Below, piece by piece: positions 2,490-11,997 of a stretch of DNA of 64,000 nucleotides. Numbering within the stretch: the stretch's first letter is position 1; each line of letters starts with the position of its first letter. The stretch lies in NCBI GenBank assembly GCA_965113315.1, contig OZ220382.1; one strand, given 5' to 3'. The position numbers were made by a program, and so were the translations under genes. The stretch comes from Podarcis vaucheri (Eukaryota). Below the pieces are notes generated by a model, which made no database searches, had not been told where the DNA came from, and saw only the letters and a program-made list of their open reading frames with translations.

Positions 2490-3286
2490 TGTGTTGATAA
2501 ACCGGGTCCTCCCTTAAAGAGGGCACGTTTTGCTGTCAGACCTGGAAACCGGCACCCTGTGTTGTGGGTGGGTACAATTGGTCAGCCACAATACCCGATT
2601 GGTAGGTCCCTCGTAGCTGGGTGCAATCTGGCCAATGGGACACAGTCCAAACAGTTAGATGGACCTATTTATACCCATGCACATGACCCAGAGCTTCCTC
2701 TTTCAGCACCTGCATTCAGAACACCCACCTCTCCCTATTTTTAGGGCTTGTTGCGCTTGACCTTGCTAAGCCGTCGTGTGTCGTCTGTCATTGGGACAGG
2801 GGCATGGCAGGAATTTTCCCCACTTGGCTAATTGGCTGTTGCCATTTGGGTTTCGCCTGTAGCGTAGCAAATTGTCACAACTTGTAAGGTTGCGGATAGG
2901 CTCTGGTTCAGGTGATAGGGATGGGAGAACGCTCTCGCCATCCCTATGTGAAGGGCATTCCGTTAAAGGACTCCAGGGACTCGATGGTTTGGTCAACCCC
3001 TGAGAGGGGGTTGTGCCCGTGCCTGAGTCCAGGGGGACATTTGGGTGGTGGAGTTCACCTGTTCCCGGCTTTCCGCTCATCCGGGTGTTCACCCTTGGCT
3101 GCCCTATGCTGGTGCCCTGCGTCAGCACTAGCTGCATGGGAGGGAGCTAGTCGAACCAGAGCCTATACAGCCGATCACTTTCTGTAATCAATAAAGTTGT
3201 GGCCTAAATTCTGCCAAAAACCAAAACCAAAATTTGAGTCAAGTGTGAATTTATTTAGGGGGGTAGTTTCTGGGTCTGAACATGCA
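2490..3286 (+). mobile_element. Solo LTR-like element (family unassigned), ~800 bp
   Basis: TG...CA-compatible ends; three CCAAT/ATTGG boxes (2577, 2598, 2632); TATTTATA 2666-2673; pyrimidine-rich initiator ~2695; AATAAA 3190-3195; CpG-richer than flanks. No clean TSD seen, so boundaries are approximate. Confidence 0.7.
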
Positions 3287-5455
3287 ATCACTAAGTATAA
3301 AATTGTAATTGTGTCCATGATTGCATCCCCCACATAGCCACACAGCTGCTTCAAAAAATATATTGGATTTTGGCAGTACAAATTGCAACATGTCCATAGG
3401 CAAGCCTTTAATCCTTGCTCAGAATCTCTTGCTACCACAAAATCTATTATGGCCTACTTGCCTGCAGGTGTGCGCAAACACAGTCTAAGCAAGTTTCTGT
3501 TCCTGATCATTGTGATTAATTGTGGCTTCTTCAAATATGGGTTCCATTTTAGTGAATCAGTCACTATATGCTGATATTCATCCATTGGGCACATACTGGG
3601 GATATCTCCCTTAACAAATAAACTGGCATAAAAGTGATTTATATTTTTGTTCAACTGCCATGCCTCCTGCCCTCAAATTGCTTTCTAGCTTCCTTCACAG
3701 AGCTAAAGTTCTAATGGTTTCCTGGGGAGATGAATAACTATTAAACAATTGGAACTCTATATTTTAAGAAGGCGCTCGTAGAAAATTAGTCTTTGTACCC
3801 ACTAAAGGATACAGGCAGGGAATTTTAAGAATTAACTACAGTACATACCAATAAGAGACAACTAATGTCAAGACAACTTCCAAGGAAACTCCGTATTTTA
3901 TTTTATTACCATTGATTCCTGTCTTTCTTCTATCATAGAATCCAAGGTAGTGTATTTGTGGTTCCTGGTGATCACCCATCCATGCACAGACCAGACCCAG
4001 ACTGGCTTAGCTTCAGCAAGGTAGTGGCCTTGAAAGCTAGGTTAAGCACTTCCTCTGGAGTTCCAGCCCTGTCCTATCAGCTCTACCACCGTGTTTTAAG
4101 TCCTTGGTCCTGGCTCAGCTTAGACTTTAAAGAGATGTCCTCTCCTGCATCCTACACAGCCCCATGCTGTGGCAAAAGGCCAATCTCAGGGCACCATCAA
4201 GAGGCTGTTTTTATGAAGCCTTAAATAGCAAAGATGAACACACTGAACCAAGCACTCATTGCACCAGGCCTAAGGCACTAGAATGTCTCTGTCCATTAGC
4301 AGCTGTTCGTTTTTTATATTCCTGGCTCAGTCTTCATTGGAGGCTGCAAAGACAGAAGGATTAAAAAAATGCTACAGGCAGGGATCTGTCTTCTTCCTTC
4401 CTTATGAACCCCCATAGCATTCCTTTTGTGCCATTTGCTAAAAGAATAACCTCTGCCAACCCTTTGCTCCTTTTTGATACAAGCAAACAAGGTCCCCTCT
4501 TCTCTTTATCCTGCAGCAAAGCAAACATACCAAGGTCTTGAAGAGATGACAATTTAAGTCAAACAACTCTGCAAGAACAGAAAGGAGGCTGCATTGTGCC
4601 AGCAAGTTGTTTAATCAGAGTTATTAAGAATGTGCCAAGCTCCTGCACAGCAACTGCTTTCACACAGTGCTGCAGAGCACAAAGAGGTAATATGGGTTGC
4701 AAGATTGGGATGTGGAAAGGGATGTAAGAATGCATTGATTTCCATTCTGACCACTGTTCATTGCATATAGCACTGTTTCCATTCTGCTGCAATTCAGCTT
4801 CCAGAAGGAGAAAAAACCTATATCACATTTCTCACTGTCCACTGTGGTAGAATTTCACATAATAATTACATTATTATTACAAAATACACACCATTCATTT
4901 CAATGCAAAGGAAACATAATGCAAATTTGGGGGTGGAGTCAAGCTGGCTGACCTGCCTGTCTAACTCTAGAAAGCATTGAAGTTATACTTCTGAGCATGC
5001 TAAAAAGCATGATTTCATGTTAGATCAAGGAAGTTCTAGTTTTCTCTGTGGTTTGAAACCTAGAGACCCCTTGATACCAGCAGGAGAGGGCTCTAATGTA
5101 ACTATTCAACATGTTGAGAACATTAAGAAGAGCCCAGTTAGATCAGTCCAAAGCCCATCTGGTCCAGCAGCCTGTTTTCCAGTGGCCAACCAGATGTTTC
5201 TGCTTAAGCCCACAAGCAGGTGATAAGTACAACAGCGCAATTCTCTCCACGTGCAATTCTCCAGTACAACAGTGAAATTCTCTCCGCGTGCAATTCCCAC
5301 ACTAGGTATTCTGAGGAATACTGCTTCTGATACTGGAGTTAGAACATAGCCTTCAATACCTATGTACTCAATATATTTTTCTTATTCTCTTTTAAAGTCT
5401 TCCAAGTTGGTGGCTATCATTACTTATTGTGGGAACAAAAGCCATAGTTTAACTA

Positions 5456-6174
5456 CCGTATTTTTCGCTTTATAAGATGCACCAGACCATAAGGCGCACC
5501 TAGTTTTTGGAGGAGGGAAACAAGAAAAAAAAATTTTTGAATCCCAGAAGCCAGAACATCAAGAGGGATCTGGCTTCTGGAATTCAGAATATTTTTTGTC
5601 TTGTTTTCTTGCTGTCCTGGCTTATGGGATAGACGTGTGCAGCCTCTCCTGGGCAGCGGGATGAAGAAGAAGAAGAAGAAGAGGAGGAGGAGGAGGAAGA
5701 GGAGGAGGAGAAGTTTGGATTTGATATCCCGCTTTATCACTACCCCAAGGAGTCTCAAAGCGGCTAACATTCTCCTTTCCCTTCCTCCCCCACAACAAAC
5801 ACTCTGTGAGGTGAGTGGGGCTGAGAGACTTCAAAGAAGTGTGATTGGTCACCCAGCAGCTGCATGTGGAGGAGCGGAGACACGAACCCAGTTCACCAGA
5901 TTACGAATCTACCACTCTTAACCACTACACCACACTGGCAGAAGCCAGGACAGGAAGCGGGGCTCCGTTCCTGTCCTGAGGGAGAGCTGCGCAGCACCCC
6001 TTCAGCGAAGTGGGAGGAGGGACAGAAGGGGCTCCGTTCCTCCTCCTGCTTCACTGAAGGGGTGCTGTGCACCTCTCCCTCTCTGCGCAGCGCCATTCAC
6101 TTCATAAGACGTGTTCACATTTCCCCTTACTTTTTAGGAGGAAAAAAGTGCGTCTTATGGAGCGAAAAATACGG
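5456..6174. mobile_element. Tc1/mariner (Tc2/pogo-like) MITE
   Basis: TIRs CCGTATTTTTCGC...GCGAAAAATACGG flanked by TA on both sides; contains a nested SINE. Confidence 0.88.
5663..5939 (-). mobile_element. Squam3-like tRNA-derived SINE nested in the MITE
   Basis: Reverse complement of the copy at 11998; (GAA)n(GAG)n tract is the (CTT)n tail. Confidence 0.88.
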
Positions 6175-6264
6175 TATGTGCTGTGTGAAGACGTCCATCC
6201 TTTTCTCTATCTTGAGTCAGCATTTGGTTTCATTGGGTGGCCATGAGTCTGAGGAATTAGCAAG

Positions 6265-10001: not shown

Positions 10002-11997
10002 CATTTATATACCTCCACAGAGCTTAAGACAGCATTTATGGTTCAATACCCTGGTTCATTGTATGCTCACAATAACCCTGTGAGGTATGTTAGGCTAAAA
10101 GGTAGGTTAAGAACTGACTCAAAGTCAGCAACAGAGTTTTATGGCTGAGTGGAGATTTGAACCCCCTATTCTAACCTAACAGTCTAAGGGCTCATCTATG
10201 CTTAACTTTTGCCCCTTGCTTTCTAGGTACAGGCCTGCATTTTAAAGTGCCACATCCAAAAGTTTTCTTTTTCTTTCCTGACTTAAAGCATGAGTTATAT
10301 GAATTCTAGATGGAACCCCAGCCTGTAATCTGGCCATTGCATTTGGACATTGCAGTAATCCAGTCTAGATTGTACCAGAGCATGGAGTACCATTGACCAA
10401 GTCATCTCTGTCCGAAAGGGGTCGCAGCTGGCAAGCCAAACTTAGTTGGAAAAATGTACTTCTCGCCAGTTGAACAGAAGTTGTCTAATGGCACTCTCTG
10501 GAATTGGTGCCTTAGAAGGCAGTGGACTTGCATTCATTATAGGTTTTTAAGCAGAGACTGGATGCCCACATATTAAAGAACTTCTGTAACAGAAGTTCTC
10601 CTGAAGCAGCAACAGATTACACAAAATTGGTGTTCTCCAAACTCGGGTCCCCAGATTTTGTTCAACTACATTTCCGATCAGTCCCAGTCATGGGCTAAGC
10701 TGACTGGGAATTATGGGAGTTGTAGTCTAACAGCATCTAGGGCTCCAATGTTGGAGAACTGTGCCTTAGATGACATTTGAAGTCCCATTCAATTTTATAA
10801 TTATAAAGCTTTAGCAAAGAGATAAGGAAACTATTGGCTCCCACAGACCAAATTTGACAAGTGGGCAAGGCAATTCCCCTGTCAATCACATGATGTCATT
10901 ATGACACATTTTGCAGCACTCTTTGCAGCAGTCTTTCCCTTGCTTTAAAGATTTTTGGAGGGATCTTTAAAGGGGAGGACACTGCTTCAATGAGCACTTG
11001 CTTTAAGCCAGTCCCCATGCTCTCAGTTTGCAGAGCTCTTTGTAGCAGTCTCTCCCCCCGCCCCCTTTAAAGATCGCTGGAGCTGCAGCCATCTCTCTGC
11101 CCTTTAAAGTTCATGGGGATACAGGGACTGCCATAAAGCAGCCTCCCCCTTTAAAGAGCACTCTTTAAAGAGGGGGGCACTGCTTCAGATAGTGCTGCAA
11201 AACAAGTTCCTGTTTCTTCACCACTATGTGGTGAGGAAGAAGAAAAAATAGTCTGCTTGCTTTTGCTGCACATGGAATGAAAGCAAGCAGACCTGGGGTT
11301 TTTTGGAAACCCAGCCCCAACCCAGTCCTTTTTTAGAAGCTGAAGGTTCTGCCCATCAGCTCACTTAACCAGTGATGCCAGCTGATGAGTGGACTTGGTT
11401 TGCGGCAAAAGGCCACCTGAGCCAAATTGGAGCCTTTGATGAGCCCAGATTTACCTATAGGCCAGAAGTTGTCCACCGCTGCTGTAGCACGATCCAATAA
11501 GGGGGTGTCATATTGAGCTACACAAGTAGCATTTGCATTACGCAACACATTCCATTTGATGGGGTCCACTCATTTTTCTTATTAATTAATCAACATAATT
11601 AATGCAATACTTGGTTATCATTAAACCTCTAGCATAAGTTACTCCCATCCTGCCACATGAGAAGGACATGTCCTCCAGAATGGTGTGATATGGACAATCC
11701 AATCCCAACTGGCATACAAAAAGGTTGATAGGATGTAAGGGAAAAAAATCCTTAATTAATGTAAGACATACAAGAAGTCCAACTGGATTGGACAAATGTT
11801 CCATCTGCCAGTGACCACCCAAAGGTCTCTAGGAAGCCCATGAGCAGGGAGGAAGAAAACAGGCATAGTTTTTTGTTAGGTCCCCAGCAGCTGATACTCA
11901 GAGGAATAGTGCTTTAGAACCCAGTGGTTGTGTATAGCAATCATGACAAGTAGCCAATGATAGATAGATCCTCCATTAATCTGCCTAATACCCCACT

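Follow-up and report, generated by a model that had tools for sequence, protein, structure and literature searches.

The segment between positions 2499 and 3287 of the window, a 64,000-nt stretch of Podarcis vaucheri contig OZ220382.1 (assembly GCA_965113315.1), is almost certainly a solo end unit of a Ngaro tyrosine-recombinase (YR) retrotransposon, and the fold that its RNA can adopt is very probably a selected sense-strand structure. We propose, at a probability of roughly 0.45, that the fold formed by its spacer C and repeat B serves replication, as a signal for reverse-transcription priming or strand transfer. Solo Ngaro units are an element kind already known; what appears to be new, judged from the literature searched, is the covarying fold and the two pairing contexts of repeat B.

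A first search of the genome gave 3288 candidates, and the 40 that were scored, the window itself aside, show 89–91% identity. Copies at this level of identity share both ends, starting with AAA-TCGGG and finishing with CGCAA, and lack TG...CA termini. Target-site duplications were counted in the 46 of 70 loci with both ends parsed and were present in at most one copy for 4-mers and in none for 5- and 6-mers, while A stands at positions -3, -2 and -1 in 45, 42 and 46 of these 46 copies. Whole direct copies flanking a gag-pol region with a DDE integrase were not seen; the relatives instead have split repeats and a YR ORF, and Pfam matched no integrase among six proteins of related elements. The ends, the missing target duplication, the split repeats and the YR ORF together exclude the LTR of a retrovirus or LTR retrotransposon. 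The R/U5 frame in which the initial annotation had described the sequence is therefore replaced by a Ngaro A-C-B unit, and a large set of LTR-like genomic repeats (5842 matches to a motif at the end of C) consists of Ngaro end units.

This assignment draws on related elements elsewhere in the genome. All 20 of the YR loci examined, out of 65 listed, match the window element, with PF00589 above cut-off at the examined loci, and 14 of the 20 have B1/B2 direct repeats of ~370–440 bp with a period of ~800 bp. Five intact elements are 70% identical to the window across 2754–3287. Their order is A1, a long 5' region, a gag-like ORF, a reverse transcriptase (RT) ORF, a YR ORF, an SGNH ORF, B1, A2, C and B2, with four ORFs in all, A1 equal to A2 over 212–234 bp and B1 equal to B2. 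Pfam identified the RT ORF by RVT_1 (E 5.5e-13), the YR ORF by Phage_int_SAM_4 (E 1.5e-4) and the SGNH ORF behind it by Lipase_GDSL_2 (E 1.1e-5, under the curated cut-off). No methyltransferase domain was matched at E<=0.1 in two RT ORFs and four other proteins, which argues for Ngaro and against a DIRS1-like or PAT element. Related families thus show split direct repeats, A1-ORFs-B1-A2-B2, with spacer C added, and the B|A junction forms a short palindrome around AAA in most intact relatives. The family of the window copy is itself linked to such ORFs by one broken copy (L177), in which RT, YR and SGNH sequences found by tblastn lie directly before a B that is 86% identical to the window from 2889 on. 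From the layout of the relatives and this ORF-linked copy, the window unit is read as a solo A-C-B with the following features, all on the plus strand:

2499..3287, plus: the whole Ngaro A-C-B solo (789 bp), identified by copies with the same ends and by homology to A2-C-B2
2499..2501, plus: AAA core at the 5' end, presumably the recombination core of the B|A junction together with AA at 3286–3287
2499..2723, plus: repeat A, a promoter-like portion and ~25 nt of presumed transcript start (A1 equals A2; border by alignment)
2632..2636, plus: CCAAT box (GCCAATG in 62 of 69 own-family copies)
2666..2674, plus: TATA-like box; relatives have TATA-like words at the matching place
2724..2889, plus: unique spacer C; intact elements have it between A2 and B2 and nowhere else (162–182 nt in 19 relatives)
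2874..2883, plus: invariant motif at the end of C, pairing as a 5' arm with 3194–3203
2890..3287, plus: repeat B (B1 equals B2 in intact elements; L177 matches from 2889)
2896..2909, plus: 5' arm of the 14-bp helix, which encloses the B domain; its 3' arm is 3153–3166
2915..2947, plus: hairpin P1 (131/140 cells paired in the register of the alignment, two pairs with two-sided changes)
2954..2974, plus: hairpin with invariant GUUAAA loop (138/140 cells paired)
2994..3013, plus: GNRA-capped hairpin, family-specific (65/152 cells paired in relatives)
3153..3166, plus: 3' arm of the 14-bp helix, from pair probabilities and alignment counts
3167..3180, plus: segment that, in the B1 position, pairs with sequence just behind the SGNH ORF; the partner is missing in the window solo
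3190..3195, plus: AATAAA poly(A) signal, invariant in 20/20 aligned units and present in 57 of 69 own-family copies
3194..3203, plus: invariant 3' arm pairing with the C-end motif

The CCAAT box at 2632, the TATA-like box at 2666–2674 and the AATAAA at 3190 are all present as first described. The RNA probably starts somewhat upstream of 2711, at ~2696–2703, to judge by the spacing from the TATA-like box and by where repeat A ends in relatives; cleavage is presumed to occur at the CA of 3215–3216. Genome searches found no intact element of the window's own family and 0 matches to its end-to-start (B|A) junction, and a junction search allowing three mismatches returned only five elements, all of a related family. 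The window copy differs by ~10% from its sisters and has 37 private bases; it is old, its own fold is likely a relic, and nothing suggests a host function for it.

Several side observations concern the related elements. The 5' flanks of insertions weakly resemble the left half of the B1|A2 junction palindrome (e.g., L033, L119), in the manner of a recombinase attachment site. Element L096 has the same A, B and ORFs as L097 and L100, but the pyrimidine-rich regions of 1.3–1.5 kb between A1 and gag are very different, possibly an intron or a swapped leader. Both B1 and B2 of L116 and L119 contain a ~30-nt duplication of a hairpin-forming stretch.

Ngaro DIRS-53_XT of Xenopus has, in the part of the description available, the same A1-ORFs-B1-A2-B2 split direct repeats and the same set of gag-like, RT, YR and SGNH hydrolase ORFs with no methyltransferase match, but differs from the elements described here in having no counterpart to the 162–182 nt spacer C between A2 and B2, and its B measures 152 bp against ~400–440 bp here (PMC9210276). 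The words ‘solo’, ‘secondary structure’ and ‘hairpin’ do not occur in the text of that paper. Isolated, scattered Ngaro AB repeats, likened to solo LTRs, are known from Cafeteria burkhardae; going by the available part of that account, a spacer and RNA structure are described only here, where the units run to thousands in many families (PMC8547959). A parallel to the A-C-B layout is SIRE of Trypanosoma cruzi, which consists of A, an exclusive internal region and B and equals the A2-B2 region of VIPER, although VIPER belongs to another YR superfamily, its spacer is ~30 bp and the portion of the paper at hand describes no structure (PMC6681497). Our literature search, with the founding papers and Repbase outside its reach, found no paper on RNA structure in Ngaro repeats.

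On the plus strand, 2711–3286 (576 nt) folds at -238.1 kcal/mol with a z-score of -5.81, and 0 of 100 dinucleotide shuffles folded as well; the minus strand of the same interval has a z-score of -4.28. The presumed processed RNA (2696–3216) reaches z -3.86 and the upstream part (2499–2710) folds ordinarily (z -1.40). Among 23 other 576-nt intervals in the window none reached z -5.8 and one fell below -4, these being noisy values from eight shuffles each. The plus-strand fold proposed at the outset thus beats its shuffles, and every complementary stretch named for it was found where it had been placed. What does not hold is its extent as a single nest of ~575 nt, since several of the long-range helices are weakly predicted in the window copy and the outer ones are unconserved in relatives. 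Pair probabilities in the window copy are 0.5–0.95 for the outermost helix (2711/3286), <=0.33 for 2732/3261, 0.22 for 2753/3246 and <=0.04 for 2805/3216, and rise to 0.90–1.00 for 2874/3203 and 0.98–1.00 for the 14-bp helix (0.39 for its terminal pair). Two further inner helices of the initial annotation, AGGGCA/TGCCCT and GGACTC/GAGTCC, are predicted at 0.82–0.97 and at <=0.09, respectively. Rfam gave no covariance-model match over the element at E<=10, so the search suggested earlier names no known family, and in three related loci its one match was at chance level and outside the unit. The element contains no hammerhead core word and no long terminal inverted repeats.

Conservation was assessed on an alignment of the window with 19 intact units, picked for diversity from 36 and representing about five deep lineages, all from one genome. 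RNAalifold predicted 101 pairs, 35 with two-sided changes, and the alignment folds at -89 kcal/mol on the plus strand versus -63 on the minus strand and -31 ± 4 for shuffled columns (n=20). The six long-range helices divide sharply. Across the 19 relatives the three outer ones are paired in 68 of 190 cells (36%) for 2711/3286, 58 of 114 (51%) for 2732/3261 and 103 of 171 (60%) for 2753/3246, counts that depend on the alignment. The fourth (2805/3216) is paired in 153/209 cells, 2874/3203 in 189/190 and the 14-bp helix in 245/266. A duplex test was passed by 0 of 19 relatives for 2711/3286, 4 of 19 for 2732/3261 and 7 of 19 for 2805/3216, and a local stem within C passed it in 18 of 19 as against the 7 of 19 for 2805/3216 (L145 being mis-anchored in both). 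Low pairing and the failed duplex test remove the outer helices as conserved features; the 3' arms of the three outer helices also lie beyond the presumed cleavage site. Of the proposed nest of six, then, the 14-bp helix and 2874/3203 stand, the three outer helices fall and the fourth loses to a local stem. C instead has a domain of its own, with helices 2763–67/2866–70, 2780–2804, 2805–11/2856–62 and 2819–50, which are 94–100% paired.

The 14-bp helix is a fair test of covariation because it was named from the window alone, before any alignment: 255 of 257 cells are paired and 6 of 13 pairs show two-sided changes, while slid controls gave 14–56%. The helix between the C motif and 3194–3203 (the C:B helix) is paired in 199 of 200 cells and is invariant, so it shows no covariation; the C motif has 5842 matches in the genome against 13 for a control pattern. 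Its mean probability in whole-unit folds of the 19 relatives is 0.33, and in L096 it does not form in the minimum-energy fold. A far more diverged solo family (L167, L170) also keeps both invariant arms, and there the adjoining helix differs in sequence.

The multibranch domain inside the 14-bp helix is only partly as first drawn. Hairpin P1 stands, its position kept and its sequence changed across relatives. AGGGCA/TGCCCT and GGACTC/GAGTCC rest on private bases of the window copy, given that among 69 own-family copies a G.A mismatch interrupts the former in 61 of 64 and an A.G mismatch the latter in 61 of 62; the private changes that create them damage the GUUAAA hairpin, which had been overlooked and is decayed at 2956 and 2971 in the window copy. 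The GNRA hairpin at 2994–3013 holds within the family, its loop reading GAGA in 48 of 69 copies and GUGA in a further 11, but not among relatives.

Over 64 core pairs, 26 of 42 minority types remain paired, 17 of them two-sided, which lies beyond all 2000 re-pairings. This result is optimistic, as the null ignores relatedness and most helices were picked by RNAalifold on the very alignment in which they were counted; only the two named in the initial annotation are independent of that choice. The covariation test suggested at the outset nonetheless comes out positive, with core helices covarying between families. Chance folding or a decayed DNA fold-back element might be invoked for the minus strand, which folds well too (z -4.28), and for the unconserved outer helices, where the chance reading holds. 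As an account of the fold we regard it as very improbable in view of the core covariation, the strand bias, the lack of long terminal inverted repeats and the direct link to RT-YR ORFs; for the core, shuffle-like energy, a want of compensatory changes and a DNA fold-back were largely not what was found. A functional RNA element, as first envisaged, is therefore upheld by the sense-strand fold, the core covariation and the excess of plus over minus strand, with one of its suggested functions, an IRES, withdrawn. Intact B sits behind the last ORF, nothing coding follows B2 and only short ATG frames overlap the unit, which speaks against that function.

Repeat B occurs in intact elements in two settings that differ in what it can pair with. 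The C motif is confined to the sequence ahead of B2 and is absent ahead of B1. The segment ahead of the hexamer (3167–3180) has a partner in the 50 nt before B1, with which it pairs at -26.9 kcal/mol as against -11.6 with the 50 nt before B2 (36 elements). The arms of this pre-B1 helix change together between families; for the two main arm classes, cognate combinations give about -22 to -25 and non-cognate ones -11 to -15, with means lowered by 9 of 41 rows wrongly anchored inside the ORF. The segment behind the hexamer, in loose 50-nt windows, pairs about equally with pre-B1 sequence (-17.5) and with C (-16.8). Identical B1 and B2 thus have different predicted partners, sequence behind the last ORF in one case and spacer C in the other. 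A small hairpin, GAGC-loop-GCTC with a variable loop, was also seen directly before the B1 border in all families inspected, the window's own included.

The place where B1 and B2 become identical is equally specific. Identity begins 7–8 nt behind the C motif in 36 of the 43 elements that could be anchored (2 of 45 could not), and this places the edge of the copied repeat in the gap that separates the invariant helix from the base of the 14-bp helix. B1 and B2 show no difference in 22 of the 43 elements. The differences that do occur (30 in 14,532 nt vs 16 in 3,338 nt) are not enriched before the cleavage site, and none is common to four sibling copies.

Such a change of partners beside a poly(A) signal recalls the occlusion switch first suggested for this sequence. 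Under that reading, the C motif would govern the choice of poly(A) site by covering the final two bases of AAUAAA together with the next 8 nt. In one version the signal of B1 would be blocked once C is made, giving full-length genomic RNA that ends at B2; in another, the helix would silence a short transcript from the A2 or solo promoter in the manner of the HIV-1 5' poly(A) hairpin. The C:B helix does adjoin the invariant AATAAA and requires C. For the last two hexamer bases, folding predicts an unpaired fraction of 0.55 in B1 alone, 0.37 in C-B2 and 0.31 in B1 with C made, and for the next eight nucleotides one of 0.30, 0.14 and 0.17, respectively. Yet the helix covers two of six hexamer bases only, and the hexamer as a whole is no less open, with unpaired fractions of 0.51 in B1, 0.55 in C-B2 and 0.44 in B1 with C made. 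The predicted accessibility (0.51 vs 0.55) thus shows no strong occlusion of the hexamer, and the claim survives only for its last two bases and the eight that follow. A weaker helix that would extend as far as the cleavage site satisfies the duplex test in 7 of 19 relatives but is outcompeted by the local C stem (18/19 vs 7/19, with L145 mis-anchored in both).

Reads bear on this reading as well. Run X24 has sense reads of another copy that continue past the presumed cleavage site, though this is a single locus and may be host pre-mRNA, and it has 24 loose ends at 3225 and 16 at the matching place on the intact 3' end. The HIV-1/SIV hairpin offers a likeness in that one of two identical signals is passed over with a helix at the signal, but in the available part of that work a local hairpin holds the signal, whereas here two of the six bases are covered, by a long-range helix that draws on sequence outside the repeat (PMC3616985). 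Poly(A) choice also leaves the invariant GUUAAA hairpin and the fixed B border unexplained, and we consider it unlikely as the chief role, if by no means negligible.

Alternatively, the B domain might be a binding site for Gag, RT or an export factor of the host and act in packaging or export, much like a Rex/Rev response element. Its multibranch form, with covarying, sequence-variable stems and one invariant loop (GUUAAA) in both B copies, would suit a protein-binding element. Such a function would leave the context-specific helices at the two borders of B unexplained, and Rfam offers no match; we judge it somewhat less probable again than poly(A) choice. Neither packaging or export nor poly(A) choice is exclusive of the replication role that we prefer.

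We hypothesize that replication would proceed as follows. The RNA would start near the end of A1, and the genomic RNA would run through B1 and A2 to B2, since a transcript without B1 and A2 would lack the B|A junction. The 3' region of the genomic RNA would fold back onto the C motif, next to the base of the 14-bp helix, and copying would start or end at the C|B border, so that one template yields both copies of B. The B1-specific helix and the small pre-B1 hairpin would mark the matching border at B1. Integration would follow, the recombinase joining the AAA core at the B|A junction to a target that resembles it. If copying instead began at the B2 poly(A) end and stopped at the corresponding place in B1, B1 and B2 would each take their 5' part from a separate template and should drift apart; they stay alike, and from this we infer that the fold-back is a priming or strand-transfer site. 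Frequent gene conversion could instead keep B1 and B2 alike. According to the accessible part of a study of DIRS-1, the primer of DIRS-type reverse transcription is unknown even for that element; there, an internal copy of the joined ends (the internal complementary region) likewise restores the termini of an incomplete transcript, but it works through inverted repeats pairing in cDNA, as opposed to direct repeats and a sense-strand fold here (PMC7192593).

Solo units would arise in this scheme from A1 x A2 recombination or from resolution between two junctions of a circular intermediate. Two solos of a very young family (L182, L188) are 100% and 99% identical to an intact A2-C-B2, which indicates that solos form at or soon after insertion. 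A different origin would make the A-C-B unit itself a mobile non-autonomous element, or the source of an expressed RNA of ~500 nt, copied in trans by Ngaro enzymes; for SIRE and VIPER, the available part of the source leaves the choice between remnant and mobility in trans open (PMC6681497). The unit has its own CCAAT box, TATA-like box and AATAAA. In the window's family, patterns of 22 fixed bases found C context 312 times and ORF context once, and a young family includes a solo with 100% identity across 811 bp to the A2-C-B2 of an intact element. That young family has no excess of solos (five intact elements, two A-ORFs-B and two solos), and a solo has no B|A junction from which its ends could be rebuilt. 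The solo and intact counts fit early formation of both halves followed by later loss of long copies, and independent mobility does not follow from them.

Four raw-read runs of a related label, which may be of another species or individual, gave 75–186 reads per run on the window stretch among the best-supported reads listed, nearly all from other copies, with 0–2 per run at least 99% alike to the window copy. None of these reads lies on the 3' flank, and neither starts nor ends pile up where they would be expected; the reads listed show no peak of starts by the TATA box, and none has a poly(A) end. The 3' end of an intact element drew 95–145 reads, again with no peaks. Run X24 also contains sense reads that enter another copy of the window's family from an upstream flank and pass through the element. 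We consider mobility or expression of the unit on its own to be improbable.

Elsewhere in the window, 29-bp inverted repeats at 5454–5482 and 6148–6176, 90% complementary and 665 nt apart, likely belong to a small non-autonomous DNA transposon. Long imperfect DNA hairpins with arms of 45–59 bp were seen at 5511–5613, 5978–6081 and 10632–10759, two of them inside that element.

Taken furthest, the comparison suggests a speculative model in which the RNA has two states, B folding one way behind the last ORF and another behind C. The C-B fold-back would then be a tRNA-free origin of reverse transcription that also chooses the poly(A) signal, and it may let the 800-nt A-C-B unit move alone. The invariant helix at the border of the copied repeat, and the helix found at the other B copy only, name the bases on which this can be tested. 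If the model is true, the thousands of LTR look-alikes in this genome would be a separate class of small mobile elements.
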